A stretch of 32,000 bases of DNA from NCBI GenBank assembly GCA_021650915.1, contig CP091279.1, positions 2,940,001 through 2,972,000 of the forward strand. Direction: 5' to 3'. The notes under the pieces were generated by a model. It saw only the letters and a program-made list of their open reading frames with translations, had not been told where the DNA came from and did no database searches. This document shows positions 2,410 through 17,706 of this stretch, piece by piece (within the stretch, counting starts at the first letter, position 1; every line of letters begins with the position of its first letter). The position numbers and the translations under genes are program-made. The DNA comes from Candidatus Brocadia sp. Lineage in GTDB: Bacteria > Planctomycetota > Brocadiia > Brocadiales > Brocadiaceae.

Positions 2410-2530
2410 TCCTGTCTTTAAGACTTTTTTCGTTTCGCGGCAAATGCATCAAGGTGGCTACCAAAGAAAACGAAAAATTTGCGCCATTGCCCGAAGCCGG
2501 CAACGTTAAACACCATTTCGCTTACCATTT

Positions 2531-3481: not shown

Positions 3482-3522
3482 ACTTCGGATTACAATACAA
3501 ATTATTATTTTTGCTCAGACAA

Positions 3523-3741
3523 CTACTTGTTCAACCATTCATCTTTCGTAATCTCTGCTTGTCTTAAAAGTCGCGTTAAAAACCCGATGCCAATTTCTGA
3601 TTCATGCTTATTGGGAATTATAACCGTCTGAGTTCCTTTCTTCATTTTTGGATGCTTTCCACCGAAGAACGGCCCTTCAAAACCAAGCTCCTTCATCCGT
3701 GAAACAAACTCTTGCCACGTTACAGGCTTTAATTTCTCCAT
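3523..3741 (-). CDS. hicA: HicA-family type II toxin (mRNA interferase)
   Basis: 72 aa. The WQEFVSRMKELGFEG..GGKHPKMKKGTQTVIIPNKHESEIGIGFLTRLLRQAEI pattern is typical of HicA/YcfA. Its start overlaps the hicB stop (TAATG). Confidence 0.8.
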   Translation of the reverse strand: MEKLKPVTWQEFVSRMKELGFEGPFFGGKHPKMKKGTQTVIIPNKHESEIGIGFLTRLLRQAEITKDEWLNK

Positions 3742-3986
3742 TATGTGACATGTTCTACAACATTAAGGTTTATGCCTTCAATTACAGGCAACTCGAGGTT
3801 GTTCTTTAACCTGAAAACAATCCATTCTTCCAATGCCTCTCTCAGTTCATCCCTGCATCTTTCAAGGGTTTCTGCCTTCCCCCATACACCTTGAAGGCCA
3901 GAAATTTCTCCCCAATATGTTCCTTCGCCTTCGATTATTTCATAATGGGCAAGCCCCATTGCCTTTTGAATATACTCTGTTAACAT
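3741..3986 (-). CDS. hicB: HicB-family antitoxin (short, N-terminal HicB fold only)
   Basis: 81 aa. YEIIEGEGTYWGEISGLQGVWGKAETLERCRDELREALEEWI matches the HicB N-terminal domain pattern. It lies immediately upstream of hicA and is coupled to it. Confidence 0.75.
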   Translation of the reverse strand: MLTEYIQKAMGLAHYEIIEGEGTYWGEISGLQGVWGKAETLERCRDELREALEEWIVFRLKNNLELPVIEGINLNVVEHVT

Positions 3987-4099
3987 GGTAGTTCCTGCTA
4001 TAAAAATAGGGTAACAATTTAGCTTTTTGAAAATTTCTCGTATCTATTCAGCGTACTTTCGCTCACAATCACTACGAGTGAACAAAATATCGATTCTGT

Positions 4100-4255
4100 A
4101 ATCCCGAAGGGATGACATGATTATAGCATATTGTTATGCAATTATGGTTAACCCCGTAGGGGTGGCATAGTATCGCTATTTTCTCGATATTTCACCCCTA
4201 CGGGGTTGAATAGGGTGGTGCGTTTTTTCTATAATCATGTCATCCCTTCGGGATT
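4100..4255. repeat. 156-bp nested palindrome built from four CCC-N3-GGG mini-hairpins
   Basis: The outer arms are perfect: 4100-4126 AATCCCGAAGGGATGACATGATTATAG and 4229-4255 CTATAATCATGTCATCCCTTCGGGATT. The inner arms are 4150-4164 AACCCCGTAGGGGTG and 4193-4207 CACCCCTACGGGGTT. Each arm is itself a small hairpin. Confidence 0.85.
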
Positions 4256-4295
4256 TTTCAAAAAACTAAATTGTTACAAAATAGGATGGGTTTTA

Positions 4296-4988
4296 TTATT
4301 TTTTCACAACCAAATGTTCCAGCACCATCTTGCGTGGATGGTTTTCCATGCCGGTTGTCCAGTCCTTGGGCGGCACAATCGTTTCCATCGTTGCCAGCAG
4401 TTGCTGAATGTCCAGTTGGTCATAGATCTGATGCCACACGCACGGGGTTTCCCGTGAGACCTCGCACTTCCCGTTTTGTGAACCGCCACACGGTCCGTTT
4501 AGCAAACTCTTTGCACACCGGCTTACCGGACACAACCCTCCGGTAGTTCCCACAATACAATTCCCGCACCCCGCGCACCGCTCCCAAAAAACACCCTGTT
4601 CGACCGGCCCACCCATAAAGGTAGTATTGAGACCGGGGAATATCCTGATCCTGGGAAATCTCTCGGCCATGTACTGAACGCCTACGCCACAGGCAATGGA
4701 AATGACGGCATCGCAATCTTTGACAACCCCTTGGATATCCCGAATAAATTCCCACTCACACTGCCGGAGCGTGGAATCTTCGATAACCTCAAGTTGCCTG
4801 CCCTCCAGTTTTGCAGCAAGCCGGAGTTGTGCGGCAAGCTCAGCAACCTGCTTTTCTCCGCCCGTATGGCATATCGTTACACACGAACCACATCCCAGTA
4901 CGCAGACCTTTTTAAAACCGGAAAGCATCTGCTTGATTTCCGGAAACGGCTTTGATGACGCTACAATCATGACACTAGTCCACCACAA
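4296..4988 (-). CDS. metV: MetV-like protein (methylene-THF reductase C-terminal, Cys-rich zinc/Fe-S domain)
   Basis: The C-terminal half has ERCAGCGNCIVGTTGGLCPVSRCAKSLLNGPCGGSQNGKCEVSRETPCVWHQIY, the hallmark of the MTHFR_C/MetV domain. It lies in the same transcriptional direction as metF. The start may be at a downstream Met (MIVASS..). Confidence 0.8.
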   Translation of the reverse strand: MWWTSVMIVASSKPFPEIKQMLSGFKKVCVLGCGSCVTICHTGGEKQVAELAAQLRLAAKLEGRQLEVIEDSTLRQCEWEFIRDIQGVVKDCDAVISIACGVGVQYMAERFPRIRIFPGLNTTFMGGPVEQGVFWERCAGCGNCIVGTTGGLCPVSRCAKSLLNGPCGGSQNGKCEVSRETPCVWHQIYDQLDIQQLLATMETIVPPKDWTTGMENHPRKMVLEHLVVKK

Positions 4989-5084
4989 ATTTCCACGAAA
5001 TTGACTCGAATTACAATATCTGCAACAAAACCCCCAGAATCGTTTCTTGCTCGTTCCTTAGCAACCCGGTAGGTCATCATCTGA

Positions 5085-7157
5085 TTATAAATGTCTCAGT
5101 TCCTCAACCATATCAAAAGCAATCTCAAGGATTTCCTTGCCATTCTGTGAAGAAATAAAATGGGTCCGAAACCTCCTGGTATCCATTCCCAACCCACTCA
5201 AGAGCTGGCTGGTAAATCTTGACCGTCTTTCAATCCATTCCTGCTCATGGCAAAAATGGCAGGTGTCGTCCTTACAAGCGGTTACCAATACCCCGTGAGC
5301 GCCCAACTCAAATGCCCTGAGATATAATGAAGGCTCTACCTTGCCCAATCCCAGAACACCTACCCGCCTGAAGTGAAAAACCAGTAAGTCGTCCGTTGCG
5401 CTTTCCTTGCCCTCTTTGTACGCACTATACTGACAATAAAAATTAACAATAAAAGGTTTAATACCGTGGACAAATTTTTCCTGAAAGACCGCTTCAAGGG
5501 CATCTTTTCCGCAATCTTCCATTGGGGTTTTAAAACGAATTGCCTTTGCAGGGCATTCTACAATACACAAACCACAGGACTGGCAATCTCCGTCAATGTA
5601 GGCCGTCGTATTGCCTTTCGCGATCTTTGGCACTTCAAAAGGACATATCCGTACGCAGGTGAGACAGCCAACGCAAAGATTATCGTCCACCGAGGCGCCG
5701 GCGCCGCAGTTCATACACCGTTGCGCCTCTCTTACCGCAGCATTCAGGGTAAACCCCAACTCTACCTCATCAAAGTTGCTGAGCCTTTTATCCAAAGACA
5801 TCGTAGGCATCTCTTGTTTTTGCTCTTTTTTAATAAGGGCAATTTTGGATGCGGCCACATCGGGCACGGCAGGCTTATCCGCCCATTTCTCATCTTTGAG
5901 CGCCGAACTTCTCAGGGTATTATGGATAGCAATCGCCGCCTTCTTGCCCTGGGCCATGCTTTCGGTCATGGTCCCCCGACCCAGCACAATATCGCCACCC
6001 GCGTAAACACCGTGAACAGAGGTGCTCAGGGTGGCCGGATTGGCAATAATGGTGCCGCCGCGCGTGACCTGAATCCCCTCCTGGCCTCTCAGGAAAGTGA
6101 GATTTGACGCTTGTCCTATTGCAAGGATAATCGTGTCCGCCTCGATAACGGATTCCGATCCTTCGTGGAAGGCCGGGTTAAATCGCTTTTGTTCATCAAA
6201 GACATATTTTACCTTCAGGATCTCCAAACCAGCTACTTTTCCGTCTTTCCCGATGATACGCTTTGGACCAACCGAGTTATAAAGCACCGCCCCTTCATGA
6301 ACGGCCTCCTCGATCTCAAAATCGGTGGTTGGCATCTCCTTCCGGGATTCGAGGCAGGCAACGGACACCCGGCCGGGTTTCAATCGCAGCGCCGTCCGTG
6401 CGCAGTCCATGGCAACGGCGCCCCCGCCGATGACCAGCACGTTCTTTCCGATCCGGGCACGTCCCGTCGTATTTACCTCATGCAAAAAGGAAACCCCCTT
6501 GAGAACCCCTTCGAGTTGCACCCCTTCAATATTCAAGGTGCGGCTTTCCAACAGGCCCACACCAAGAAATACCACGGAAAACCCGTCTTTCTTCAAGCTT
6601 TCAAAGGTAATATCGACTCCAAACGTAGTATTATACCGAATCTCTACCCCAAGCTTTTGAATGCAATGAACGTCATTATCAATGGATACCCGTGGAAGAC
6701 GATAGGTTGGAACCCCCATGCGAAGCATGCCGCCCGGAGTTGGATTTGATTCAAATATGGTGCAGGAATATCCTAAAATGGCCAAATCATTCGCTGCGGC
6801 AAGCCCGGCAGGACCGGCGCCAATGATGGCGATTTTTTCAGGGTATCGCTCGGAAACTGCTCTCCCGGGTTCCTCAGAAAAGTTATCACCGAGGAAACGC
6901 TTGAGCCATGCGATTGCGATGGGGGCATCCGTGCTGTTTCTCCGGCATTTTGTTTCACACGGATGGGTGCAGATACGGCCACATGCTGCTGGCAAGGGAT
7001 TTCTCTCCCTCACGAGCCGAAATGCCTCATTGAAACGTCCCCGGGCTATGAGCTGGACATAATCACGGGCATCCTGCCGTATAGGACAGGCCAGGATACA
7101 TGGCGCCTCTTCATTGATTTTTTTGTCAGGTGTTGCGCAGGTGCGTGTTGTTGTCAT
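5085..7157 (-). CDS. Three-domain fusion: GltD/NfnB-like NAD(P)H-FAD oxidoreductase + 2x[4Fe-4S] ferredoxin + MvhD/FlpD-like domain
   Basis: 690 aa. N-terminus: CILACP..NPLPAACGRICTHPCETKCRR followed by IAIIGAGPAGLAAA and VLVIGGGAVAMDCA dinucleotide folds (GltD-type). Middle: CMNCGAG..CVGCLTCVRICP and CQSCGLCIVECP. C-terminus: GVLGLGKVEPSLYLRAFELGAHGVLVTACKDDTCHFCHEQEW (MvhD-like). Confidence 0.8.
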   Translation of the reverse strand: MTTTRTCATPDKKINEEAPCILACPIRQDARDYVQLIARGRFNEAFRLVRERNPLPAACGRICTHPCETKCRRNSTDAPIAIAWLKRFLGDNFSEEPGRAVSERYPEKIAIIGAGPAGLAAANDLAILGYSCTIFESNPTPGGMLRMGVPTYRLPRVSIDNDVHCIQKLGVEIRYNTTFGVDITFESLKKDGFSVVFLGVGLLESRTLNIEGVQLEGVLKGVSFLHEVNTTGRARIGKNVLVIGGGAVAMDCARTALRLKPGRVSVACLESRKEMPTTDFEIEEAVHEGAVLYNSVGPKRIIGKDGKVAGLEILKVKYVFDEQKRFNPAFHEGSESVIEADTIILAIGQASNLTFLRGQEGIQVTRGGTIIANPATLSTSVHGVYAGGDIVLGRGTMTESMAQGKKAAIAIHNTLRSSALKDEKWADKPAVPDVAASKIALIKKEQKQEMPTMSLDKRLSNFDEVELGFTLNAAVREAQRCMNCGAGASVDDNLCVGCLTCVRICPFEVPKIAKGNTTAYIDGDCQSCGLCIVECPAKAIRFKTPMEDCGKDALEAVFQEKFVHGIKPFIVNFYCQYSAYKEGKESATDDLLVFHFRRVGVLGLGKVEPSLYLRAFELGAHGVLVTACKDDTCHFCHEQEWIERRSRFTSQLLSGLGMDTRRFRTHFISSQNGKEILEIAFDMVEELRHL

Positions 7158-7208
7158 AGCCAGATTTCATTGATTGAACAGATCGTCAGAAATTCACGAA
7201 AACCCTTC

Positions 7209-7622
7209 TTATTCTCCCATGACTTTTATAATCACCCGCTTGCTGCGCTGGCCGTCAAATTCGGCATAAAACACCTTCTGCCACTGGCCGAGGTCTAGCT
7301 TCCCCTCTGTTACCGGTATTACTACCTGATGTCCGAGCAGGAGGTTTCTGAGGTGTGCATCACCATTCACCTCACCGGTTCTATGATGATAATAATCATG
7401 GCCTTCCGGAATCAGCTTGAGCATCCACTCTTCGATATCCCGATGGAGTCCTGGTTCTGCATCATTCACAAAGATCCCCGACGTTATATGCATGGCAGAC
7501 ACCAAAATCATACCCTCTTTAATGCCACTCTTCTGCAAGACCCGTTCTATCTCCCGGGTAATATTAATAAACTCACGGCGCTTTTTGGTTTGAAATGTCA
7601 GATATTCGGTCAGATATTTCAT
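7209..7622 (-). CDS. yjbQ: YjbQ/UPF0047 family protein (secondary thiamine-phosphate synthase)
   Basis: 137 aa. Motifs [56 protein letters not shown] are typical of UPF0047. Confidence 0.85.
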
Positions 7623-7660
7623 AGGAAAAACCTTATTATTTCGATGCTCAGAAGTTTTAA

Positions 7661-7836
7661 ATTAGCTCTTCAGCGACCTTCTCAATGTAGAGCGACGAGC
7701 CTCGTCGCTTTACAAATGCAGCTTTGAATTTCCTTATCATTTAATTAGGCCTTCAGCGACTTTTTAGTATAAGGTTAAACCCATCCCTGAATCCCCTCCC
7801 AGGAGGGGATTTCTTTCGTCCCCTCTTGAGAGGGGG
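7661..7836. repeat. Cluster of intergenic repeats: a 20-bp direct repeat x2, a GC palindrome, and two CCCC..GGGG hairpins
   Basis: Direct repeat ATTAGCTCTTCAGCGACCTT (7661-7680) and ATTAGGCCTTCAGCGACTTT (7744-7763), 17/20 identical. Palindrome AGCGACGAG-c-CTCGTCGCT (7691-7709). Hairpins ATCCCCTCC-ca-GGAGGGGAT (7791-7810) and CCCCTCT-tg-AGAGGGG (7820-7835). Confidence 0.75.
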
Positions 7837-8181
7837 TTGGGAGTGTGTAAGGCAGAAGCAGAAAGATTGAAACTCCTATAACTCAGTTTTGAATCCTATC
7901 CCTTCATGAGAACCATTGGAATTCGTATGCCAGTACTTCACTTTCCGTTCTACTCGTTAAAAATCAAATTTTACCAGTAATCTTAAGCTATTCAAGAAAA
8001 TTTCATTATTTTTCCGTCATCCCCCTTAGCCCTTCGTTCTCAGCCTTGTCTCACCTGCGCAATCCATTATTTATTGGTGGAAAATCCGCAAGCCATAATT
8101 TGATTATACGAAAAAGAGATACCTTGTTATTTTTTTGGAAATTTTCTACTTCTGACAGCTGAGGTTTCACTCATTAAAAAC

Positions 8182-8210
8182 TTGACATTGTTTTGCCAAT
8201 TACTTAATAT
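8182..8210 (+). promoter_or_regulatory. Sigma-70-like promoter upstream of the tcmP/DUF5131 pair
   Basis: TTGACA (8182-8187), a 17-nt spacer, then TAATAT (8205-8210), about 160 nt upstream of the tcmP ATG. An AAGGA Shine-Dalgarno-like motif sits about 11 nt before the ATG at 8371. Sequence match only; no experimental support. Confidence 0.45.
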
Positions 8211-8248
8211 ACCGGCAAATAGTCTACAGAGCTTATTATATGCCCAAA

Positions 8249-8307
8249 TAGCCGTATAATTAAGTCATCAGTAACCGTATTATAGGTACTAATAGCCATA
8301 AAATAAG
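8249..8307 (+). promoter_or_regulatory. Three degenerate direct repeats at 21-23 bp spacing between the promoter and the tcmP start (possible operator)
   Basis: TAGCCGTATAATTAAG (8249), TAACCGTATTATAGG (8272), TAGCCATAAAATAAG (8293). The shared core is TA(G/A)CC(G/A)TA.A.T.A.G. The spacing is about two helical turns. Confidence 0.3.
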
Positions 8308-8370
8308 ACAGCTAATTCAAATAAGTAATATCTTAAAACTATTCATTAGTACAAACAAGGAATATCAGAA

Positions 8371-9525
8371 ATGGTTAACAATAGTTTTTTCGAAGAACAG
8401 AAAGAACAATCACTAGTTAAGTCCATTATCGTTGCCAAGTATTTTGATGTCTGGGCAAACGTTATTATCAACACACAAAAGAAATATCCACAGTATCCCC
8501 AGAAAATTGCCTATATTGATCTTTTTGCCGGTCCCGGGCGTTATAAAGACGGTACCCAATCTACACCAATAAAAATATTGACCAGCGCCATTGCCAAGCC
8601 AGATTTGCGAGATCGACTGGTTGCCATATTCAATGATAAGGATGAAAACAATTCAAAAACTTTACGGGCAGCTATAAACAACATTCCTGGAATTGAGACG
8701 TTGCGCTACCAACCAGAAGTTTACAATGAGGAAGTTGGCGACGAGATTGTCAAGATGTTTGAAAACATGAATCTGATGCCAACATTGTTTTTTGTCGATC
8801 CCTGGGGTTATAAAGGGCTTTCGCTTGGCTTGGTTAACTCTGTATTAAAAGATTGGGGGTGTGATGCCATTTTCTTTTTTAATTACAATCGTATCAATAT
8901 GGGCATTGATAACGAAGACGTGAGGCAACACATGAATGAATTGTTTGGCGAAGAACGAGCCGAAGAATTGCGTAAAAAAATCAGGAACAAAAATCCAGAA
9001 GAAAGAGAATTATTCATTGTCGAAGAATTATGTCAGGCTTTAAAAGCGTATGGTTCAAGGTATGTATTGCCTTTCAGATTCAAAAATGACCGAGGGAAAA
9101 GAACAAGTCATCATTTAATCTTTGTAAGCAAACATTTTCGCGGTTATGAAATCATGAAAGATATTATGGCTCGTGAAAGCACTAGCAATATGCAAGATGT
9201 GCCGTCATTTGAATATAACCCAGCTGATTTACTGCCCAAACAGATGCTTCTATTTATGCTTTTCCGCCCGCTCGATGATTTGAGGGATAGTTTGCTGCAA
9301 ACATTCAAAGGACAAAGATTAAGAATGCAAAAAATTTACGAACAACATAATGTAGACACGCCTTACATAAAAAAGAATTACAAAGATATCTTACGTCAAT
9401 TGTATGATGAAGACATTATCCAAGCCGTTTCATCGAAAGGCAAGCCGCCGAAGAAAGATACCTTTGGAGATGATATTCTGGTAACTTTTCCTAAAAGGAT
9501 AAAGCAATGGCAAGCAGTAAAATAG
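8371..9525 (+). CDS. tcmP: Three-Cys-motif partner protein TcmP-like (uncharacterised; Rossmann/methyltransferase-like motifs)
   Basis: 384 aa, adjacent to and overlapping a Gp37/Gp68 (DUF5131) gene, the defining context of the TcmP family. Contains IDLFAGPG (aa 49-56), an acidic FNDKD strand end (aa 87-91) and FFVDPWGY (aa 140-147). Order and spacing resemble class-I SAM-methyltransferase motifs I, II and IV. Confidence 0.7.
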   Translation: MVNNSFFEEQKEQSLVKSIIVAKYFDVWANVIINTQKKYPQYPQKIAYIDLFAGPGRYKDGTQSTPIKILTSAIAKPDLRDRLVAIFNDKDENNSKTLRAAINNIPGIETLRYQPEVYNEEVGDEIVKMFENMNLMPTLFFVDPWGYKGLSLGLVNSVLKDWGCDAIFFFNYNRINMGIDNEDVRQHMNELFGEERAEELRKKIRNKNPEERELFIVEELCQALKAYGSRYVLPFRFKNDRGKRTSHHLIFVSKHFRGYEIMKDIMARESTSNMQDVPSFEYNPADLLPKQMLLFMLFRPLDDLRDSLLQTFKGQRLRMQKIYEQHNVDTPYIKKNYKDILRQLYDEDIIQAVSSKGKPPKKDTFGDDILVTFPKRIKQWQAVK

Positions 9526-10295
9526 AATGGACAGAATCTACGTGGAATCCGGTTACCGGCTGCACCAAAATTAGTGCCGGTTGCAAAAACTGTTATGCGG
9601 AACGTCTGGCTAAAAGACTAAAAGCCATGGGACAGCCCAATTATAAAAATGGGTTTAAACTTACACTGCACGAACAAGTGTTGGAATATCCGTTACAATG
9701 GAAAAAACCGCAAACCATTTTTGTGAATTCTATGAGCGATTTATTTCATGAAGAAATTCCGGATGAGTTTATCTTTAAAGTATTTGATGTGATGAAGCGG
9801 GCGTATTGGCACAGATTCCAAATTTTAACAAAGCGTTCCGTCCGTTTAAAGGAAATGGCTTCATTGCTTGATTGGCCTGAAAATGTTTGGATGGGAGTGA
9901 GTGTTGAAAATTTATTGGCTAAATACCGGATTGATGATCTGAAAGCAGTTCCTGCATTTATTCGCTTTCTTTCTTTTGAGCCCTTATTAAGTCCACTTGG
10001 TCATTTGGTTTTGGGTGATATTCACTGGGTAATTGTTGGGGGAGAATCAGGGCCAAAGGCCAGGCCAATGAAAAAAGAATGGGTAGTTCAAATTAGAGGA
10101 CAATGTATTGAACAAGGTGTACCGTTCTTTTTCAAGCAATGGGGTGGAATCAATAAAAAGAAAACCGGAAGACTACTGGAAGGACGGACATGGGATGAGA
10201 TACCTTTGAAACTCATTGAACTTGAAGAAGAAATTGAGCATGACAAATCGCTGCGCCTGACCGCTATTCCGCTGGCGCTCCATAGCGGCAGGTGA
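9507..10295 (+). CDS. Phage Gp37/Gp68 family protein (DUF5131), three-Cys motif
   Basis: 262 aa. IEWTESTWNPVTGCTKISAGCKNCYAE (C19-x6-C26-x2-C29), IFVNSMSDLFHE, FQILTKR, FLSFEPLL, HWVIVGGESGPKARPM and PFFFKQWGG are the conserved blocks of this family. It overlaps tcmP by 19 nt. Confidence 0.85.
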   Translation: MASSKIEWTESTWNPVTGCTKISAGCKNCYAERLAKRLKAMGQPNYKNGFKLTLHEQVLEYPLQWKKPQTIFVNSMSDLFHEEIPDEFIFKVFDVMKRAYWHRFQILTKRSVRLKEMASLLDWPENVWMGVSVENLLAKYRIDDLKAVPAFIRFLSFEPLLSPLGHLVLGDIHWVIVGGESGPKARPMKKEWVVQIRGQCIEQGVPFFFKQWGGINKKKTGRLLEGRTWDEIPLKLIELEEEIEHDKSLRLTAIPLALHSGR

Positions 10296-10303
10296 ACTCG
10301 GGT

Positions 10304-10732
10304 GTTGAACGAAACCGCTTCGCGGCTGCATTTCAGAGAGAAGAGATTCGATAGTTTGTTCTTTGAACAAGGAAGAATTATTTGCCAGGCTTACCGGGAT
10401 TGATCCCCGGATATGCCATTGTTGTGGAAAAGGCACGATGGTGAGGAGAGAAACATTACACCCCCTCATTCATGCGCCCCTTGGGAAGGGCTAATTTCAG
10501 TCTTGATTTATTCCCACGGGAAGTGTATTGTTACCATACCAAGGGGAGAGGTACGCCCTTTTTGAGCAAACACCTTGAAAGAATACCTGAATTTTCAATA
10601 TGTCTCTGGAAAAACATGATGTTTCCGAAAGCATTATTGACAAATATCAACGACACAAGCAACAAAAACAGTATTTTACCCAGAAGCCGTACGATTGAAT
10701 CCCCATAGTGGGGAGCAGCGGCTTCGTTCAAC
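10304..10732. mobile_element. 429-bp segment bounded by 18-bp inverted repeats (16/18); probable decayed mobile-element scar
   Basis: Left arm GTTGAACGAAACCGCTTC (10304-10321). The reverse complement of the right arm 10715-10732 is GTTGAACGAAGCCGCTGC. The segment starts 9 nt after the DUF5131 stop and contains the transposase-tail remnant listed next, plus a CCCCA-tag-TGGGG hairpin (10701-10713). Confidence 0.4.
10309..10495 (+). pseudogene. Remnant of the C-terminal tail of an IS91-family (Y2) transposase
   Basis: A 62-codon open frame without a start ends ..SLNKEELFARLTGIDPRICHCCGKGTMVRRETLHPLIHAPLGKG*. The 'tGiD...C..CgkGtM' ending resembles IS91-family transposase C-termini. Recognised from memory only; there is no upstream transposase body. 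Confidence 0.35.
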
Positions 10733-10850
10733 GGTATTTTATCCGTAATTGAGCTTGCGAAGAGACAATGATAAGATTATTTCTCTTTTCGCAAATTCAG
10801 ACAAAGCTGGTGCGTTTTTTTATTCGGCTCAAATACGGATAAAATACTTA

Positions 10851-11924
10851 ATGTTAGGCACACCGAATACAGGCATTCGCATGGCGGCACGCATTGCAAT
10901 TTATGGTGGCACTGACTTACCGCGAGAACTTGTTGAATTCGTGCGTTGCCTAACCCGCAGTTTTCTCGCAATCCAAGATGTTGTCCTGGTCAGTGGCGGC
11001 TTTAAGTGTTTCAAGAAGTATCCCGACCGCATCTCTGTTGATCTCGCAGTATTGCGTGCGGCTAAGCGGTACATTAGCCAACCTCAGGATTTCGACCAAC
11101 GATTTGAAACGTGGCTCCCCGCAGAGAAGCTAGATCGTCCAAGCGATCAGGTCGAACGCTTCGCGGAAGGTACGGTCCACAGAATTCCAGGGACGGATCA
11201 AGCTAGACGTTTCAACTTAGTCAGGGCGGCTGACGGCCTGGTAACGATCATCGGCAAGGGAAATACTCGCACCGTTCTGGAGTTGGCATTGGCTCTGGAC
11301 AAACCAGCTTTGCCAATTGCCTTCACAGGAGGTGACTCAAAGAGCTTATGGGACGCCAATCGCGAGGAGTTCATCAAGTCTCTCAACCTTCATCCCCAGC
11401 TGACCAGCCGCCTTCAGGGTGATCCTCCGCCGCTGGCGGAAGTGGAAGGCCTTGCCAAGGAAATCGCTCAGGCTGTTTATGAAGCCGCGAAGAAACGCTG
11501 CTTGGTTCTGATGCCATTCGGATCTGAGCATGATGACTTTTATCAGAACGTACTTCGTGACGCGATCGAACGAGCAAACTACATCCCATATCGAATCGAT
11601 ATCGATGCCTACGCAGGAAATATTCCGTCTCTATTCCTATCCTCGTTGGAATGCGCTCGGTCGGTAGTCGTTGACGTCACTGGCCGGAATCCCAATGTGA
11701 TGTATGAGCTTGGCCAGGTCCATGCTCGTGGAATCAACCCGTTAATCATTGATCGTCGGCAACAGTCCAAGATGGATGCTGGCGCAATGCCGTTCTATCT
11801 GCGTCATGAGAAGCTGGTCAGTGAAGAGAATAACGAAGCCGGTCACCGTAGAATCGCCAACGTGCTAACGCAATACCTAAACGCTGTGGCTAAGAATGCA
11901 GATGAATATCGACGCCAACCATGA
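10851..11924 (+). CDS. SLOG-like domain + TIR-like / nucleoside 2-deoxyribosyltransferase-fold domain fusion protein
   Basis: The ORF is open from TTG at 10749. I prefer ATG at 10851 (alternative ATG at 10881). N-terminal half: RIAIYGG..VVLVSGGFKC..LVTIIGKGNTRTVLELALALDKPALPIAFTGGDS (GG / GxGT..E / GG pattern of SMF-DprA-LOG-type domains). C-terminal half: CLVLMPFGSEHDDFYQNVLRDAIE..YRIDID..SLFLSSLECARSVVVDVTGRNPNVMYELGQVHARGINPLII (the MPF..D..NpNV-YE-G-AhA pattern of TIR-like/NDT-fold domains). Sampled 60-nt lines are 55-67% GC versus 37% in the neighbouring genes. Confidence 0.6.
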   Translation: MLGTPNTGIRMAARIAIYGGTDLPRELVEFVRCLTRSFLAIQDVVLVSGGFKCFKKYPDRISVDLAVLRAAKRYISQPQDFDQRFETWLPAEKLDRPSDQVERFAEGTVHRIPGTDQARRFNLVRAADGLVTIIGKGNTRTVLELALALDKPALPIAFTGGDSKSLWDANREEFIKSLNLHPQLTSRLQGDPPPLAEVEGLAKEIAQAVYEAAKKRCLVLMPFGSEHDDFYQNVLRDAIERANYIPYRIDIDAYAGNIPSLFLSSLECARSVVVDVTGRNPNVMYELGQVHARGINPLIIDRRQQSKMDAGAMPFYLRHEKLVSEENNEAGHRRIANVLTQYLNAVAKNADEYRRQP

Positions 11925-11945
11925 ACGCTTGCAACAGGGTGGCCT

Positions 11946-12077
11946 GCCTAACGAGTGCTTGCAGCCGACCCGCCTTACGTCTGCGGTGTCCTGCGGTTCG
12001 CGGCGCTGCTTGCTGCCTGCGGCGTCCATCGTTCCGCTCTCCGCTGTGCGGTGGTCGGCTGAAGCCGAACGTTGTAC
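11946..12077 (+). other. Integron attC-like imperfect palindrome immediately 3' of the SLOG/TIR-like gene
   Basis: GCCTAAC (11946-11952, fits RYYYAAC) and GTTGTAC (12071-12077, fits GTTRRRY with one mismatch). AACG/CGTT pair. Unpaired spacers are AGTG and CCGAA. A 12-bp stem pairs CTT[G]CAGCCGACC (11958-11970) with GGTCGGCTGAAG (12053-12064), leaving a single bulged G. The 82-nt central region is GC-rich. Total length 132 bp. Confidence 0.4.
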
Positions 12078-12451
12078 GTAAACAATGCAATGAGAGGGGT
12101 AATCCATTGGGAAAACCTGAAGTCGAATCCACGATGCAAGTATATTGTGATTGTACAAATAAAAAAGGCGAAGTTATATATTCATCAGTGAATACTACAT
12201 GGATATGTAAATCTGAATAGCTTGATACAGTGAAAAGCGGCATTTTTTCTTCGGTAAATCGGTTCAAATATTATTGGGCATGCTTAAATTGTGAAAAAAC
12301 ACGAGATGTCGGCATATGGGACACCGAAGGAAACTCATAGGGTGTAAAAAGATAGACTACCATTTATATGCCCTGCGCATGTCAAGGGGAAAAACTTTTT
12401 TGTATACCATAATATTTGCAGACATGTTAAAATTCTTTAGGAGGTAAATCT

Positions 12452-12670
12452 ATGGCAACTACATACGTTAAAGACGATCTCATCGCCCAGGTTGAAAAAC
12501 TTCCTTACGACCTACAACTTCGGGTGCTTGATTTTGTTAAATCTTTGATTCCCAAAGGGGTTACAGGGAAAAATCTTTTACAATTTGAAGGAACTATTCC
12601 CGTTGATGATTTAGAGAGAATGTCTAAAGCAATAGAGGAATGTGAGAAGGTAGACACCAGTGAATGGTAG
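12452..12670 (+). CDS. Type II antitoxin (DUF2281/VapB-like) partner of the PIN toxin
   Basis: 72 aa. LIAQVEKLPYDLQLRVLDFVKSL resembles the DUF2281-type antitoxin N-terminus. An AGGAGG Shine-Dalgarno motif sits 8 nt upstream. It overlaps the downstream PIN gene by 11 nt. Confidence 0.65.
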   Translation: MATTYVKDDLIAQVEKLPYDLQLRVLDFVKSLIPKGVTGKNLLQFEGTIPVDDLERMSKAIEECEKVDTSEW

Positions 12671-13049
12671 ATTTCTTCTCGATACCAATATAATAATTGC
12701 TCTCTTTGCTAAAGACCCGAAAATTCATGACCGCATGGCTAATGCTGAGGAAATCTTTGTCTCATGCATTGCTATCGGAGAGATGTATTTTGGAGCTTAC
12801 AAATCGCTTAAAATTCAAGAAAATATCAGTCGTATTGATGAATTCGTACTTAAGAATACCGTGCTTTCATGCAATACCGAAACAGCAAAGATATACGGTA
12901 ACATAAAGAATCGTTTAAAAGACAAAGGACAGCCAATTCCAGAAAATGACATATGGCTCGCTGCAATCGCTCAGCAATATGGTCTAATATTAGTCACTAA
13001 AGATTCCCACTTCGATGCGATTGAAAATTTAAAAATTGAAAAATGGTAA
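12660..13049 (+). CDS. vapC: PIN-domain ribonuclease toxin VapC
   Basis: 129 aa, GTG start. FLLDTNIIIALF (first acidic residue), IAIGEMYFG, and IPENDIWLAAIAQQYGLILVTKDSHF (conserved D residues) are typical of VapC. Confidence 0.85.
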   Translation: MNGRFLLDTNIIIALFAKDPKIHDRMANAEEIFVSCIAIGEMYFGAYKSLKIQENISRIDEFVLKNTVLSCNTETAKIYGNIKNRLKDKGQPIPENDIWLAAIAQQYGLILVTKDSHFDAIENLKIEKW

Positions 13050-13109
13050 TATCGTTTGACCGCAAGACCAGATTGAGAAATATAAGACCGCGTACAACAA
13101 AAGCATCGA

Positions 13110-13160
13110 GAGGGACGGGGAATAGCTGTCGGATTTCATATTTTATATTCCCTGCCCCTC
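13110..13160. repeat. 15-bp imperfect inverted repeat (13/15) between convergent vapC and nadB
   Basis: GAGGGACGGGGAATA (13110-13124) and TATTCCCTGCCCCTC (13146-13160), with a 21-nt loop. It may be a bidirectional terminator-like hairpin, but no clear U-tract follows. Confidence 0.6.
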
Positions 13161-13282
13161 ATGCTTGCCGTTGAGCTTCTTGAGCGGGGGACATGGTCAG
13201 AGGTCAGATTTGTGATTACGGATTTTATTATTGCGGTGAAATAACGGAGGACTCTCAGGTCGGCTATCCCTTGCGATTCGGA

Positions 13283-14956
13283 TCAGGATTTCTGCCTTTT
13301 CACGGTAATATGTCTCTTCCAGTGAGTATTGTCTGTTTCGGGGTAATCAGAGCGGTGGTGAACACCGCGGGATTCCTTGCGTTTGCGGGCTGAAACGACA
13401 ATAAGACGGGAAACCAGCAGCATGTTCTGTAACTCCCATCCTGCCGGGTTGGCAAACTCTTTGTCCATGACGTACCGACACCACATTTCAATCATCTCTT
13501 CCGCCTCAAGCAGGTGTTTTTCGTCACGTTCTATCCCGGCATCCCTCCACATAAGACTCTTGAGGGAATTCCCAATATCATTCAGATCCAGCCAGCTGAT
13601 CTTTGATCCGCCCGCAAGCTCCTGAATGGGGTAAGGAAACAATTCCCGTTTCGACCTTTGGATTGACTTGCCGGCGTCTGCCCCGGCAACAGAACCTGCG
13701 ACCAGCCCTTCAAGCAAGGAATTGCTGCCAAGCCGATTGGCACCATGCATGCCGGTGCAGGCCACTTCACCGCAGGCGTAAAGGTGTCTGATGGTCGTTC
13801 GGGAAAAACGATTGACCTTCACCCCGCCAATCATATAGTGCGCGCTGGGACGCACCGGAATGAGGTCTTTGGCAATATCAATTCCAAAAGACGCGCAGAT
13901 CTCCCTGATTCTGGGGAAACGGGCATACAATCGTTCTTTCGGGATATGGCGTATATCGATATAGACATGGGTGCGATCGGTCTTCTGCATTTCTTTCAGG
14001 ATGCTCTGGCTGACGACGTCTCGTGGCGCCAGCTCCGCCTGTGGATGATACTTCGGCATGAAGCGTTCACCTCGTTTATTCCTCAAGATACCCCCTTCAC
14101 CGCGCACCGTCTCCGTGATGAGAAACCGCACCGCACCGGCAATATAAAGCGTGGTGGGATGAAACTGCACAAATTCCATATCCTGAAGGGTGGCGCCCGC
14201 CCGGTAGGCCATTGCCAAACCATCACCCGTGGCTACGCCGGGATTCGTTGTCTCGCGGTAGACTTGTCCGCACCCCCCTGTTGCCAGAATCGTCCGCTTT
14301 GCCCAGATCAGCATGCTTCCCTTCTTTGCGTGCCAGGCAATTGCGCCGTGACAAATTCCGTCCTCGGTAATCAAGTCGATTACAAAGGTATGTTCAAAGA
14401 CCTTGATATTTTTATTTTCTCGTGCAACGGCAATGAGGGTTTGCTCTATCTCTTTCCCGGTAGAGTCGCCCTGGGCGTGAATAATGCGGGGAAAGTGGTG
14501 TCCTCCCTCCTGCGTAAAAACCAGACGGTCATTTTCCTTGTCAAATAACGCGCCCCATGCAATCAATTCATTCACTCGCCGGGGGCCTTCGCTAATAAAG
14601 GCTTTTACCGTTGCAGCGTCACATAAACCCTGACCTGCATCCAGGGTGTCTTTGATATGCTTCGATACCGTGTCACCGGCGGAGAGGACGACCGCTACGC
14701 CTCCCTGGGCATAGGCAGTGTTATTTTCATCAATCCTTTCCTTGGTGACAACCAATACGCTATCACACCTTGCCGCCTGTATGGCGGCGCTGAGCCCTGC
14801 CACCCCGCTTCCCATCACCAGGACGTCGGTAAAAACGTGAGCGGTAGTGCGGCTGTCAAAGGAGACGAGGTATCTTTTTGGTTCCACTTGTTTTTTCACG
14901 GAACGAATTCTATCCTTAATAAATTTGTTTGTCAAAGAAAACTCCTTTATTTTCAT
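13283..14956 (-). CDS. nadB: L-aspartate oxidase
   Basis: 557 aa. DVLVMGSGVAGLSAA FAD fold, AQGGVAVV, RPSAHYMIGGVKVN and CGEVACTGMHGANRLGSNSLLEGLV are typical of NadB (fumarate reductase/succinate dehydrogenase flavoprotein family). There is an N-terminal extension of about 40 aa. Confidence 0.9.
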   Translation of the reverse strand: MKIKEFSLTNKFIKDRIRSVKKQVEPKRYLVSFDSRTTAHVFTDVLVMGSGVAGLSAAIQAARCDSVLVVTKERIDENNTAYAQGGVAVVLSAGDTVSKHIKDTLDAGQGLCDAATVKAFISEGPRRVNELIAWGALFDKENDRLVFTQEGGHHFPRIIHAQGDSTGKEIEQTLIAVARENKNIKVFEHTFVIDLITEDGICHGAIAWHAKKGSMLIWAKRTILATGGCGQVYRETTNPGVATGDGLAMAYRAGATLQDMEFVQFHPTTLYIAGAVRFLITETVRGEGGILRNKRGERFMPKYHPQAELAPRDVVSQSILKEMQKTDRTHVYIDIRHIPKERLYARFPRIREICASFGIDIAKDLIPVRPSAHYMIGGVKVNRFSRTTIRHLYACGEVACTGMHGANRLGSNSLLEGLVAGSVAGADAGKSIQRSKRELFPYPIQELAGGSKISWLDLNDIGNSLKSLMWRDAGIERDEKHLLEAEEMIEMWCRYVMDKEFANPAGWELQNMLLVSRLIVVSARKRKESRGVHHRSDYPETDNTHWKRHITVKRQKS

Positions 14957-15023
14957 GGTAAATTTGGCTTATGATGATAAAATGAGAGAAACGGATATTT
15001 CATGATTTTGTGGAGGACGTGCC

Positions 15024-15617
15024 ATGAAGAAAATAGGATTCGTGGTTTTTGTCGTTGTCATGATCTTTACAAGGCTTAGTCTTGCCCAGGATTCGCCCAG
15101 GGTGATCGTAGAGAGATACCTCGATGCCGTGCGGAACAACGACTATGATAAGGCATATTCTTTTATTTCGAAGACTGATACCACGATTATTAACTGGCTG
15201 AAACTCATACAGTACGTTAAAAAAATTGCACCGGTAAGACTTGCCGAAGTTATTGACCTCGCTCATCATGCCGTCCGGCAGGAGATCGCCAGCGTCGTTG
15301 TGGGCGGAAATACCTGCCTGGTAAAGATCCACTCAAGGATTCCTGATATGGAAGAGGGCCTGAGGATTACCCGGAATCCGGAAGAGATAAAGTCTCTTTT
15401 AGACCGTGGCAGATTACCGGCAAAAGAAAGATTCGGGGAGTGCACACTGATAAAAGAAGACGGTATGTGGAAAATTTCAAAAGTCAAAGGTGTTTCCTCA
15501 GATCAGGCTGCGGATATTGCAGCAGACTTTGCGACGCTCATTTTAGGCAAGGACGAAGCAGAAAGGATGAAGAAAAAAATCGATGACTTTATGCAGCAAC
15601 AGGAAAAGGGCGCTTAA
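15024..15617 (+). CDS. Secreted hypothetical protein (signal peptide; NTF2/DUF4878-like start)
   Basis: 197 aa. MKKIGFVVFVVVMIFTRLSLAQD is a signal-peptide-like N-terminus. The following VERYLDAVRNNDYDKAYSFIS is typical of small NTF2-like secreted proteins. Function unknown. Confidence 0.6.
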   Translation: MKKIGFVVFVVVMIFTRLSLAQDSPRVIVERYLDAVRNNDYDKAYSFISKTDTTIINWLKLIQYVKKIAPVRLAEVIDLAHHAVRQEIASVVVGGNTCLVKIHSRIPDMEEGLRITRNPEEIKSLLDRGRLPAKERFGECTLIKEDGMWKISKVKGVSSDQAADIAADFATLILGKDEAERMKKKIDDFMQQQEKGA

Positions 15618-15699
15618 TTTCGCATGCTGGTAAAGAAAAGGGCGGATGATTTTCTTCTTTTTTCATCAGCCGGTGTATCAGTAGTTTCTGATTTTTCTA

Positions 15700-15728
15700 T
15701 TGACATTTTCCAGAGAAACGCTTAAATA
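15700..15728 (+). promoter_or_regulatory. Sigma-70-like promoter about 245 nt upstream of the glycan cluster
   Basis: TTGACA (15700-15705), a 17-nt spacer, then TAAATA (15723-15728). Sequence match only. Confidence 0.35.
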
Positions 15729-15972
15729 GCAAACACTTAGAAAGATGAACACGCGTTGTAAGCAATAAATCTTTCGTATCTCTCAGCTGCGAAACCCCTG
15801 GTTTCTCCCGCAGATGGGTGTTCTGCAGGAGAAATGTATTATGCACCATAGCACAACCAAAAGACCACCTTCACAAGCGCGATGACAGGGAAAAGTCATC
15901 AAAGGCATAATACCAAGAAACAGCACGATCTTCCTGCACGAAAAAGGAATTTATCAGTTAAAAAACTGATGC

Positions 15973-17706
15973 ATGAAAACGCTGGGAATCCATATCGGCC
16001 ACGACAGTGGCAGCTCCTTAATAATTGACGGGCAAATTATCGCAGACGTATCGGAAGAGCGATTTGTCCGGCTAAAACATTATGCAGGGCTGCCGGTACA
16101 TTCCATAAACTTCTGTCTTGCTGCGGGAAAGATCTCCTTTGACGAACTGGATTTCATTGCAATATCGGGTGAAATCGCAGACCTGAAGCTGAAAACCCTC
16201 CTGAATCTATCCGACGAACAATTTGCTCACATCGTCGAGCAGAACCTGCCGCACCGATCCATCGGCAGAAAAGTAAAAGGCCTCCTGAGGAACAAAATCG
16301 TATATCAGGAATCTCCTCCGCTATATCTGAGATTTTTTAACCTTGCACCGAAGACGAAAGTAATTAAGGTCGATCATCATGTGGCTCACGCAGCTTCGGC
16401 ATACTATACCTCAGGGTATCAGGATTGTCTGATCATTACCTGCGACGGGGTCGGAGACGGGACGTCCCTGGCCGTCTGGAATGGCACTGGCGGGGTGATA
16501 AAGGAAATAAGGCGATACGACACCGCGGGTTCTTTCGGGTGGTTCTATAGCCTGGTAACTGAGGCACTGGGATGGTGGGTAGGTGACGGAGAAGGGAAAA
16601 CCATGGGTCTTGCGCCCTATGGTGACAGAAAGACGGTCACTAACAAAGAAATTCTTGCCCGGTACCTGCCGTGTTATCAAGAGGGAGAGCTCGTTCGGGG
16701 GATCGATTTTGGCGCCGTTAAATATTTTAAAGAATTTGATGCCTTTCATTGGCATTTTCCTGACGCACGGAAGATACAAAAGGCGGTTGAGGATTACGGA
16801 CCGGAACATGTAGCGGCGGAAGCCCAGTATTTATTGGAAGAATCGCTGTTGCAGTTTATCAGGCACTGGGTAATAAAAGAACAGGCAAAAAACCTGGCGA
16901 CTGCAGGCGGGGTATTTTTAAACGTAAAATTGAATCAGAAAATCCTTGAGGATACGCTGGTAGAAAATTATTACATCTTCCCGAATGCGGGTGACGCTGG
17001 CCTTGCATTGGGGGCTGCCTTCTCGGTATCCCAACATTTTTCCAGAGAAGGTGTTGCTCAAAGGATTGACCATATGTATTGGGGACCCCAGTATGGCAAC
17101 GATGAAATTGAAGCTCTTCTGAAAGAAAGAAATCTACCGTACCGGAAGGCGGATAATGTTGCGAAAGAGGCGGCAAGGGCGTTGGCTGACCAGAAGATCG
17201 TCGGGTGGTTTCAGGGAAGGATGGAGTCGGGCCCCCGGGCTTTAGGTGGCAGATCCATTTTATTTGACCCGGGAAAGCCGGAAAATAAAGATATCATCAA
17301 CAAGCGGGTTAAGTTCCGGGAGCCTTTCCGGCCTTTTTGCCCTTCCCTCATGGAAGAATATGCCCATGAATATCTTTCCACTTCGCATAAAGACCGGTAT
17401 ATGATTACCGCCTGTACGGTAAAGGATGAGAAAAGGAAGATTATCCCGGCGGTAACGCACGTCGACGGGACCTGCAGGCCGCAATTCATTTCACGGCAGA
17501 TCAATAAACGGTTTTGGGAACTGCTTGACGCCTTTCGCCAGTACACGGGTGTGCCGGTAATCCTGAATACTTCCTTTAACATCAAGGGGGAACCGATTGT
17601 GTGCAGTCCAAGGGATGCCATAAAATGCTTTTTCGATACGGGTTTGGACGCGCTCTGTATAGGGGACTTTGTTGTGACGAAGCAGCAATCCTTCAACCGT
17701 CCGTGA
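15973..17706 (+). CDS. Carbamoyltransferase (NodU/CmcH family)
   Basis: 577 aa. LGIHIGHDSGSSLIIDGQIIADVSEERFVRLKH, DHHVAHAASAYYTSG, GRMESGPRALGGRSIL and LNTSFNIKGEPIV are canonical NodU/CmcH blocks. Confidence 0.9.
   Translation: MKTLGIHIGHDSGSSLIIDGQIIADVSEERFVRLKHYAGLPVHSINFCLAAGKISFDELDFIAISGEIADLKLKTLLNLSDEQFAHIVEQNLPHRSIGRKVKGLLRNKIVYQESPPLYLRFFNLAPKTKVIKVDHHVAHAASAYYTSGYQDCLIITCDGVGDGTSLAVWNGTGGVIKEIRRYDTAGSFGWFYSLVTEALGWWVGDGEGKTMGLAPYGDRKTVTNKEILARYLPCYQEGELVRGIDFGAVKYFKEFDAFHWHFPDARKIQKAVEDYGPEHVAAEAQYLLEESLLQFIRHWVIKEQAKNLATAGGVFLNVKLNQKILEDTLVENYYIFPNAGDAGLALGAAFSVSQHFSREGVAQRIDHMYWGPQYGNDEIEALLKERNLPYRKADNVAKEAARALADQKIVGWFQGRMESGPRALGGRSILFDPGKPENKDIINKRVKFREPFRPFCPSLMEEYAHEYLSTSHKDRYMITACTVKDEKRKIIPAVTHVDGTCRPQFISRQINKRFWELLDAFRQYTGVPVILNTSFNIKGEPIVCSPRDAIKCFFDTGLDALCIGDFVVTKQQSFNRP

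Follow-up and report, generated by a model that had tools for sequence, protein, structure and literature searches.

The 32-kb stretch of the Candidatus Brocadia sp. genome analyzed here (32,000 nucleotides of contig CP091279.1, hereafter the window) carries a gene for a predicted two-domain protein, in which an N-terminal SLOG domain is followed by a domain of the nucleoside 2-deoxyribosyltransferase (NDT)/DNPH1/MilB type. Comparison of both halves with known modules leads us to favor, with moderate confidence, a single-chain, signal-gated N-glycosidase effector of Thoeris type. In this proposal the SLOG domain would bind an ADP-ribose-derived or related nucleotide signal and binding would alter the oligomeric state of the protein, by analogy with ThsA, whose oligomerisation changes with ligand binding (bioRxiv 10.1101/2022.05.07.491051). 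The C-terminal domain, once switched on, would cleave the N-glycosidic bond of an abundant nucleotide, either a ribo- or deoxyribonucleoside monophosphate (NMP or dNMP) or NAD+, so that the nucleotide pool needed by a phage would be depleted and growth arrested. The signal could be made by a nearby TIR gene, as present in about one fifth of the family loci. An earlier reading of the sequence (the original prediction) had already proposed ThsA logic with a different effector. This description gained support: sister proteins carry the same SLOG clade fused to TIR domains, and the C-terminal domain is homologous to that of a ThsI-like effector encoded next to ThsB.

The gene is an intact open reading frame (ORF) on the + strand, ending at 11924, with candidate starts at TTG 10749, ATG 10851 and ATG 10881. 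Counted from ATG 10851 the product has 357 amino acids (aa), which is the numbering used for residues throughout. This product is 100% identical to BROFUL_02624 of Ca. Brocadia fulgida, which was deposited with that start and is named 'nucleoside 2-deoxyribosyltransferase' in UniRef. The real coding sequence (CDS) is probably the shorter one that begins at ATG 10881 and encodes 347 aa, since the majority of 129 homologous clusters begin at the equivalent position (MAARIAIYGG; M-x-x-R-I-A-I-Y-G-G) and residues 1-10 are disordered in the AlphaFold2 (AF2) model, with a predicted local distance difference test (pLDDT) score of 52. Similarly, the called ORF of the nearest relative (locus L099) starts at the position equivalent to 10881, and ATG 10851 lies outside the block of DNA homology with that locus. 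Thus the originally assigned interval, 10851-11924, does hold an intact ORF, with a start likelier to be found 30 nt downstream.

Two-domain architecture is common to the 129 homologous clusters, in which 14 columns are invariant and about 45 nearly invariant; the Brocadia protein retains them all. The ratio of nonsynonymous to synonymous substitution rates (dN/dS) was 0.08-0.28 when it was compared with four homologues, and the gene is under purifying selection. Because 129 clusters have the same architecture, the AF2 models are confident and dN/dS is low, the motifs described below are far beyond chance. An identical protein in an unchanged Brocadia context was seen in 23/23 contigs read and is indexed in 118 blocks of the collection.

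The full-length AF2 model had a mean pLDDT of 90.6 and a predicted template modelling (TM) score (pTM) of 0.86, and the latter indicates a defined inter-domain arrangement; helices 161-178, 182-189 and 195-213 were assigned by DSSP in the linker region. For the N-terminal half, the top solved structure found by Foldseek was the SLOG domain of BcThsA with 3′ cyclic ADP-ribose (3′cADPR) (7uxs, E 2.9e-6, TM-target 0.65). The next matches were TM1055 (1rcu, E 1e-5), the LOGs 5zbl/5its, PpnN, TRPM and DprA (4ljk), and the full-length ThsA structures 8btp, 8bto and 6lhx were also matched. Among PDB profiles, 1rcu was the best match (E 1e-3) and spanned the R...D...G-x-x-G-T...GG region. Pfam matches of the protein itself to LDcluster4 (E 0.012, 15.7 bits, cutoff 26.3) and STALD (E 0.025, 14.4 bits, cutoff 24) were below threshold and PF03641 was not matched. 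These two families match 10-11/57 family members at E <= 0.01, and some relatives pass a Pfam SLOG-family cutoff (P0199, 32.8 bits; L102, 32.4; P0275, 27.2). As modelled, the N-terminal half is a SLOG fold, in agreement with the original prediction, and belongs to a clade between Pfam LDcluster4 and STALD. Nothing relevant turned up in the literature on 'LDcluster4'.

We then consider the motifs of this half: IYGGT, SGGF (VSGGF), SVD, RFETWLP, QARRF, GxGNTxxVLE (GKGNTRTVLE), KPALP and FTGGDS. Four of them, IYGGT, SGGF, GxGNT and FTGGDS, are invariant or nearly so in 57 sequences, GxGNT being a variant of GxGT. Residues Y18, G19, G20, T21, R119, R120, T139 and E144 are conserved in this half. 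The glycine-rich pattern GG ... GxGTxxE ... GG originally read in this region was therefore right for the GG loops, and its third motif has to be corrected to GxGNTxxxxE. Aligned to TM1055 (GGEIGTAIE), the protein has Val142 where LOG enzymes carry their catalytic Glu (T+3), and the family consensus is GxGNTxxVLE. As this Glu is one half of the LOG catalytic dyad, its replacement makes LOG-type catalysis less likely, by analogy, than ligand binding in the manner of the ThsA SLOG domain, and it excludes the plain LOG enzyme that had been named as an alternative. The protein thus shares with LOG, TM1055 (TIGR00725) and PpnN the SLOG fold and its best N-terminal profile match; it differs from them by lacking the Glu of PGGxGTxxE and by the fusion of a second domain of N-glycosidase fold. 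The 3′cADPR pocket of BcThsA involves S290, R371, K388 and E403 (bioRxiv 10.1101/2022.05.07.491051); the sequence alignment of our N-terminal half to 7uxs spans the C-terminal part only.

The C-terminal half was also modelled separately (residues 192-357, pLDDT 91.3). Foldseek matched it to DNPH1 (8qhr, E 6.5e-5, TM-target 0.69), NDT (7o62) and the cytidine monophosphate (CMP) N-glycosidase MilB (4jem), with TIR domains (MyD88, MAL, SARM1, AbTir and TIR-STING) interleaved in the list; the top match among viral structures (BFVD) was a 'CMP/hydroxymethyl CMP hydrolase'. Rcl/DNPH1 was matched by PDB profile as well (E 6e-4). PF05014 matches 14/57 family members at E <= 0.01, the Brocadia protein itself remaining below the Pfam threshold. 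The modelled half is thus of NDT/DNPH1/MilB-type fold and TIR-like in shape, as had been proposed from the letters of the sequence, and neither half of the protein was assigned to an unrelated fold. Kinship at the level of sequence was detectable for the NDT side only. No TIR match was obtained in the protein with Pfam at E <= 1, and PADLOC gave a weak 'Effector TIR' match (E 1.4e-3 over 48 residues). Likewise, neither SIR2 (Pfam, PADLOC) nor TPR-S (PF20308, Pfam) was matched.

The motifs of this half are CLVLMPF (CLVLMPFG), RID, AGNIP, DVTG, NPNVMYELG, HA and PFYLR, and they read in the protein as CLVLMPFG ... RID ... NPNVMYELGQVHA. The MPF, D, NPNVMYELG and HA elements on which the TIR-like/NDT assignment had been based are present exactly as claimed. 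Glu286 of YELG is invariant (57/57) and aligned with the GYELG Glu of DNPH1/Rcl, which we take to be the catalytic nucleophile. Residues C217, R248, D250, N280, N282, H291, R302 and PFY 314-316 are conserved in a family-specific manner. DNPH1/Rcl, the NDTs and MilB (PF05014, DrHyd) thus share with the Brocadia protein the fold and the aligned Glu of (Y)ELG, and they differ from it as housekeeping enzymes without a fused sensor domain. The family also carries M-P-F223 after strand 1. A Tyr on this strand is found in deoxy-specific NDT and DNPH1 and a Phe in ribo-tolerant enzymes, MilB and TIR NADases (PMC11204291). F223 hints at tolerance of substrates with a 2′-OH, if positional equivalence is assumed, as the alignments to DNPH1/NDT relatives did not span strand 1.

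A link to Thoeris was provided by plasmid proteins annotated 'TRAFs-binding domain-containing', which were retrieved by tblastn with the C-terminal domain. On Pseudomonas plasmid pA7J1 (L100), the gene of the homologue is followed, after a gap of 6 nt, by a ThsB_TIR gene of 134 aa; on V. harveyi pVH3 (L101), it likewise adjoins a ThsB_TIR gene. Both proteins consist of an N-terminal N-glycosidase-like domain and TPR-S (PF20308). The family C-terminal profile aligned with the pA7J1 protein by hhalign over 128 columns (probability 98.9%, E 1.7e-17, 31% identity), and pairwise BLASTP gave E 5e-12 to the pVH3 protein. The motifs C-x-V-x-M-x-F-G, R-x-D, NPN-x-x-YELG-x-x-HA and F-x-L are common to our C-terminal half and these ThsI-like proteins. 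ThsI of type VIII Thoeris is described as 'CMP hydrolase and TPR'; it was validated with phages and is activated by canonical cyclic ADP-ribose (cADPR), and the system is toxic when cADPR is supplied (bioRxiv 10.64898/2025.12.03.692087). As a separate observation on pVH3, a DUF4231 gene, accompanied by a TIR gene of its own, adjoins the pair of ThsI-like and TIR genes (L101, 2920-6254); type VII Thoeris uses a SLATT effector and co-occurrence of VII- and VIII-like systems is rare (bioRxiv 10.64898/2025.12.03.692087).

The SLOG half leads to other Thoeris types. The type IX effector ThsJ, described as 'TIR and SLOG', has been validated and was not activated by 3′cADPR, and type III has a SLOG effector in ThsD; SLOG-patatin and SLOG-4TM are among the candidates listed as untested or negative (bioRxiv 10.64898/2025.12.03.692087). 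In all, 29 Thoeris configurations have been predicted so far. Accessible parts of the text and supplements of the same preprint hold no entry combining SLOG with an NDT-like domain, and Burroughs et al. 2015 may already draw it. It appears that only the combination is new and that both modules are already known in Thoeris, SLOG in types I/III/IX and the N-glycosidase in type VIII. The earlier view of a domain combination not recognized as characterized is thus kept for the combination and given up for its parts.

The Brocadia protein itself is not a member of ThsA, ThsI or ThsJ: it has no SIR2, TPR-S or TIR domain and the window contains no thsB. It resembles ThsA (type I, SIR2-SLOG; 7uxs/8bto/6lhx) in joining a putative SLOG ligand sensor to a domain predicted to destroy a nucleotide cofactor, and in that some family members adjoin a ThsB-like TIR gene; unlike ThsA, it has the SLOG domain at the N-terminus, in reversed order, and an NDT/DNPH1-type domain instead of SIR2. 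With ThsI it has in common the homology of its C-terminal domain to the N-glycosidase domain of the ThsI-like plasmid proteins, and it differs by a SLOG sensor in place of TPR-S and, again, by reversed domain order. ThsJ and ThsD are approached through sister proteins that pair its SLOG clade with a TIR_2/ThsB-like domain; these sisters are likened to ThsJ by architecture, whereas the Brocadia protein has no TIR domain by any hidden Markov model (HMM).

Sister proteins were obtained by searching exhaustively with the SLOG profile in HMMER, which gave 467 representatives at E <= 1e-3. Among the best 150 of them, to which the architecture counts refer, 106 carry an NDT-like domain, 31 are short or fragments and 13 have another architecture. 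Where identified, the extra domain of the latter is TIR_2/ThsB-like (e.g. P0119, P0154, P0157, P0199 and P0223), EAD11 (P0168 and P0217) or DUF4062 (P0275). Further SLOG-TIR proteins are P0116 and P0120. The TIR domains of P0116 and P0119 match PADLOC ThsB1 (E 5e-45 and 2.6e-36 respectively), and the SLOG domains of P0119 and P0154 match the family profile at E 1e-63 to 1e-67 (best 7.7e-67). SLOG motifs are kept across the NDT-like, TIR, EAD11 and DUF4062 architectures. Judged by these predicted architectures, one SLOG clade is carrying interchangeable effector domains, that is, it undergoes effector swapping. A second homologue search with the SLOG profile recovered mostly the same family again.

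The NDT-like domain is widespread, with 2127 clusters at E <= 1e-3 among 6224 candidates scored, and its partners are SLOG, GAF, PAS, LMWPc and SIR2+HEPN. Two such proteins of conflict-style architecture are a SIR2_2 (ThsA-like SIR2) + NDT-like + HEPN/DUF4145 fusion (L087, 3766-5385) and a fusion of the NDT-like domain to a low-molecular-weight phosphatase (L067, 1417-2412). The two-domain family is rare and patchy and is found in Planctomycetota, Acidobacteriota, Bacteroidota, Chloroflexota, Desulfuromonadales, Proteobacteria and Actinomycetota. Phages gave a single weak match to the C-terminal domain, and BFVD held no two-domain analogue. The sole full-length plasmid homologue, on Rhizobium leguminosarum plasmid p_2 (L102, 6001-7038), is interrupted by a stop, annotated only from 6181 and probably a pseudogene; this copy is flanked by genes for a transposase and for IS66 TnpB.

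We examined the genomic context of 49 non-redundant family loci. It was variable and a conserved metabolic operon was not found; toxin–antitoxin (TA), TIR or other defence genes occurred in a minority of loci. This speaks against the possibility, raised with the original prediction, that homologues might sit in conserved metabolic operons. A TIR gene lay within 6 kb in 9/49 family loci versus 1/40 loci with the C-terminal domain only (Fisher p = 0.02). In L004, L010 and L070 it immediately follows the family gene, in the same orientation. Apart from TIR_2 (3/24), no recurrent partner was found with Pfam among 24 downstream and 26 upstream same-strand neighbours. PADLOC matches to immediate neighbours were to MkoA (twice), TIR-TM (twice) and ThsB (twice), with SoFic, MkoC, mad2/6, bSEFIR and PD-T4-6 as singletons. 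The association with defence islands is real but modest. As examples, the family member of L096 belongs to a small island with HicAB and DUF4160/DUF2442 modules inside the his operon, and that of L010 (JGI 3300057004, Ga0568869_0000168) is surrounded by a TIR-rich island (1574-16793) with genes for a TIR-TM-like protein with receiver, the SLOG-NDT protein, a 477-aa TIR, a 517-aa ThsB1-like TIR adjoining an LSDAT/SLATT protein, and a 925-aa TIR-WD40.

Several results weigh against the Thoeris-type effector proposed here. At the level of its parts, the sequence similarity of the SLOG half to ThsA is marginal (E 0.09-1). In the C-terminal half, hhalign places Phe262 opposite Asp80 of DNPH1 (a comparison of low weight), and the chemistry may therefore differ from that of DNPH1. 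The pA7J1 and pVH3 proteins match type VIII ThsI by architecture and context only. At the level of context, the 32-kb window yielded neither a TIR ORF, with a family-derived TIR HMM, nor another signal-generating gene, a nearby TIR gene is missing from about 80% of family loci and only about 10-12 of 150 immediate neighbours match PADLOC. The TIR linkage of the family is also suggestive only, as the HMM was built from 11 TIRs linked to the family itself and the control set is imperfect.

As the window lacks a TIR gene, the signal of a Thoeris-type effector in Brocadia would have to be made in trans, or the ligand would be a different one. We tentatively consider a stronger form of this idea, which seems possible but on the doubtful side: a free-standing 'plug-in' effector, whose SLOG gate would read a signal from unlinked TIR or other enzymes or from the phage, possibly an undescribed ligand, and whose output would be depletion of ribonucleotides (NMP/CMP) rather than NAD+. 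It would explain the roughly 80% of loci without a partner gene.

Among explanations outside Thoeris, the main rival is a nucleotide nucleosidase linked to stress or metabolism and following PpnN logic, with LOG- and NDT-family domains acting jointly or under control of a metabolite or alarmone and with no dedicated immune role. Both superfamilies do hold housekeeping N-glycosidases (LOG, PpnN, DNPH1 and NDT), which were seen among the fold matches, in most family loci the gene is on its own, with ordinary metabolic neighbours and no defence match, and sister C-terminal domains have as partners GAF, PAS and LMWPc, modules of a general signalling or small-molecule kind. We nevertheless regard this explanation as unlikely: the family is rare, phylogenetically scattered and without conserved operon, the LOG catalytic Glu is missing and the closest relatives of both halves are Thoeris-type modules beside TIR genes. 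Moreover, fusion of the SLOG clade to TIR, EAD11 and DUF4062 is typical of conflict systems, and TA-carrying islands appear to acquire the gene as a single-gene cassette. It is hardly credible that a Thoeris-like operon decayed and left this gene behind as an orphan remnant without function in Brocadia. The absence of a partner gene in the window and the long non-coding flanks, including a 65%-GC stretch at 11925-12080, would fit such a remnant. Against it stand the intact ORF, the retention of all family-invariant residues, the dN/dS values and the identical protein in the same context across the contigs read, and neither a TIR nor anything resembling the genes downstream of homologues could be traced in the flanks.

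Two further alternatives keep the cADPR-type signal and change the part played by the protein. It could be a signal-processing enzyme in which SLOG captures such a signal and either SLOG or the NDT-like domain cleaves its N-glycosidic bond, as an off-switch or a guard versus leaky activation. Iyer et al. 2022 propose that some SLOG domains degrade cADPR-like signals at ribosyl-adenine bonds (PMC9503650), and the protein does occur in TIR-rich islands such as that of L010. We find this role improbable, because the homologous C-terminal domain of ThsI-like proteins holds the effector position of a two-gene Thoeris operon and type VIII is toxic with cADPR supplied. The swap partners of SLOG are also of effector type (TIR and EAD11), and a full-length phage counterpart is missing although signal-degraders are common in phages. 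Alternatively, generator and receptor could be united in one chain, the C-terminal domain making an ADP-ribose-derived product from NAD+ that its own SLOG domain binds, i.e. a feed-forward NADase. No partner gene would then be needed, and most loci are solitary; ADP-ribosyl cyclases and NADase effectors belong to the DrHyd superfamily (PMC9503650), and sisters carry ThsB-like TIRs on the same SLOG clade, as the ThsB1 match of P0116 illustrates. This is very improbable in our view, since the closest sequence relatives of the C-terminal domain are of DNPH1, MilB and ThsI type and not cyclases, a module for sensing the trigger is not evident, and the TIR genes near 18% of loci suggest an external source of signal.

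Features of the locus are collected in the table.

Table. Features of the SLOG-NDT locus and its surroundings, in window coordinates.
Feature	Coordinates	Strand	Evidence
Probable CDS of SLOG + NDT-like protein, 347 aa plus stop	10881..11924	+	ORF, homologue starts, dN/dS
Predicted SLOG core domain, residues 11-160	10881..11330	+	Foldseek, PDB profile, weak Pfam
Helical extension and linker, residues 161-213	11331..11489	+	DSSP helices in AF2 model
Predicted NDT/DNPH1/MilB-like ('CMP-hydrolase'-type, DrHyd) N-glycosidase domain, residues 214-350	11490..11900	+	Foldseek, profiles, hhalign
GAG codon of Glu286 (YELG), predicted catalytic nucleophile	11706..11708	+	Alignment to DNPH1/Rcl
DNA homology block with L099, 87% identity	10853..11952	+	blastn
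Nested hairpin/palindrome	10734..10847	+	Inverted repeat, RNA fold
GMT-wHTH (TcmP of the original prediction) + DUF5131 pair, context	8371..10295	+	PADLOC candidate PDC-M30/PDC-M41
Antitoxin-like protein + PIN-domain protein, VapBC-like pair, context	12452..13049	+	Pfam

The gene stands alone, with about 555 bp of non-coding DNA upstream (10296-10850), about 530 bp downstream (11925-12451) and no operon partner, in an island that sits between UPF0047 and nadB. The homology with L099 extends only about 28 nt beyond the gene at either end, and the flanks beyond resemble no homologue locus. This suggests a single-gene transferable unit, and these limits are a better sign of mobility than GC content.

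Indeed, composition says nothing about the origin of the gene. The ORF has a GC content of 51.9% (52.5% at third codon positions, GC3), with 46-60% in 100-nt windows inside it. Its immediate neighbours, the GMT-wHTH/TcmP-like, DUF5131 and vapBC-like genes, have 36-41% and nadB, MTHFR and the oxidoreductase gene at 5085-7157 have 52.0, 50.1 and 50.7% respectively. Since these three genes of the same window match it, the AT-rich neighbours are the outliers. The description 'GC-rich' is accordingly valid relative to the AT-rich neighbours of the island and overstated otherwise, the overall value being equal to that of nadB and MTHFR. A foreign origin based on GC content was considered and rejected, as the gene does not differ from nadB and MTHFR in either GC or GC3.

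Immediately upstream of the gene, the outer arms of the strong nested hairpin in region 10725-10860 (10734-10754 / 10827-10847) are 21 nt long and 95% complementary, with a folding free energy of -45.2 kcal/mol (z -6.0). The hairpin stops 5 nt before the L099 homology block, has a single copy in the window, has no match in Rfam and was not found in homologue loci; a regulatory element and an insertion scar are both conceivable. We also observed a 16-nt inverted repeat with one mismatch (10304-10319 / 10717-10732), again in single copy in the window, that brackets a spacer of about 430 bp between DUF5131 and the gene and is consistent with a MITE-like (miniature inverted-repeat transposable) element or an insertion scar. 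Downstream, the stretch of 65% GC that follows the stop (11925-12080) is non-coding; only about its first 28 nt are common with L099, no significant structure was predicted for it (z -1.2) and it does not resemble the genes that follow the homologues. Searches of both flanks (10296-10850 and 11925-12451) by tblastn, blastn, HMM and Rfam for the remains of a TIR or partner gene were all empty.

The neighbouring pair of GMT-wHTH and DUF5131 genes matched, in both its members, the candidate defence systems PDC-M30 and PDC-M41 of PADLOC (PDC-M30A, E 5e-26; PDC-M41B, E 7.9e-121; PDC-M30B, E 2.5e-117). DUF5131 is represented by two separate ORFs in an earlier assembly (GCA_000987375.1). On the other side, the VapBC-like pair matched the Pfam families PIN (E 2.3e-18) and, below the cutoff of 26.5 bits, DUF2281 (E 4.3e-4, 21.3 bits). 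Farther away, the Brocadia contig L103 carries at 1678-2141 (about 3500-4300 of the window) a HicA/HicB-like (UPF0150) TA pair between the MTHFR and DUF5981 genes, which is a second small TA insertion in the region.

Thoeris immunity reuses a few TIR-made ADP-ribose signals with many different effectors. The family described here combines the SLOG sensor of one Thoeris branch (types I/III/IX) with the killing module that another branch uses, the type VIII N-glycosidase. If the protein were a regulated metabolic nucleosidase only, it would be of minor interest. As a Thoeris-type effector, the family would be a natural test of the signal read by each module and of the substrate degraded by a 'CMP hydrolase' effector. 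Most copies, including that of this anammox bacterium, are without a linked generator, and they would thus serve as a probe of triggering in trans or by ligands not made by TIR. Should the signal indeed come from unlinked enzymes or from the phage, the protein would be a Thoeris-like effector freed from operon linkage and acting as a shared hub.

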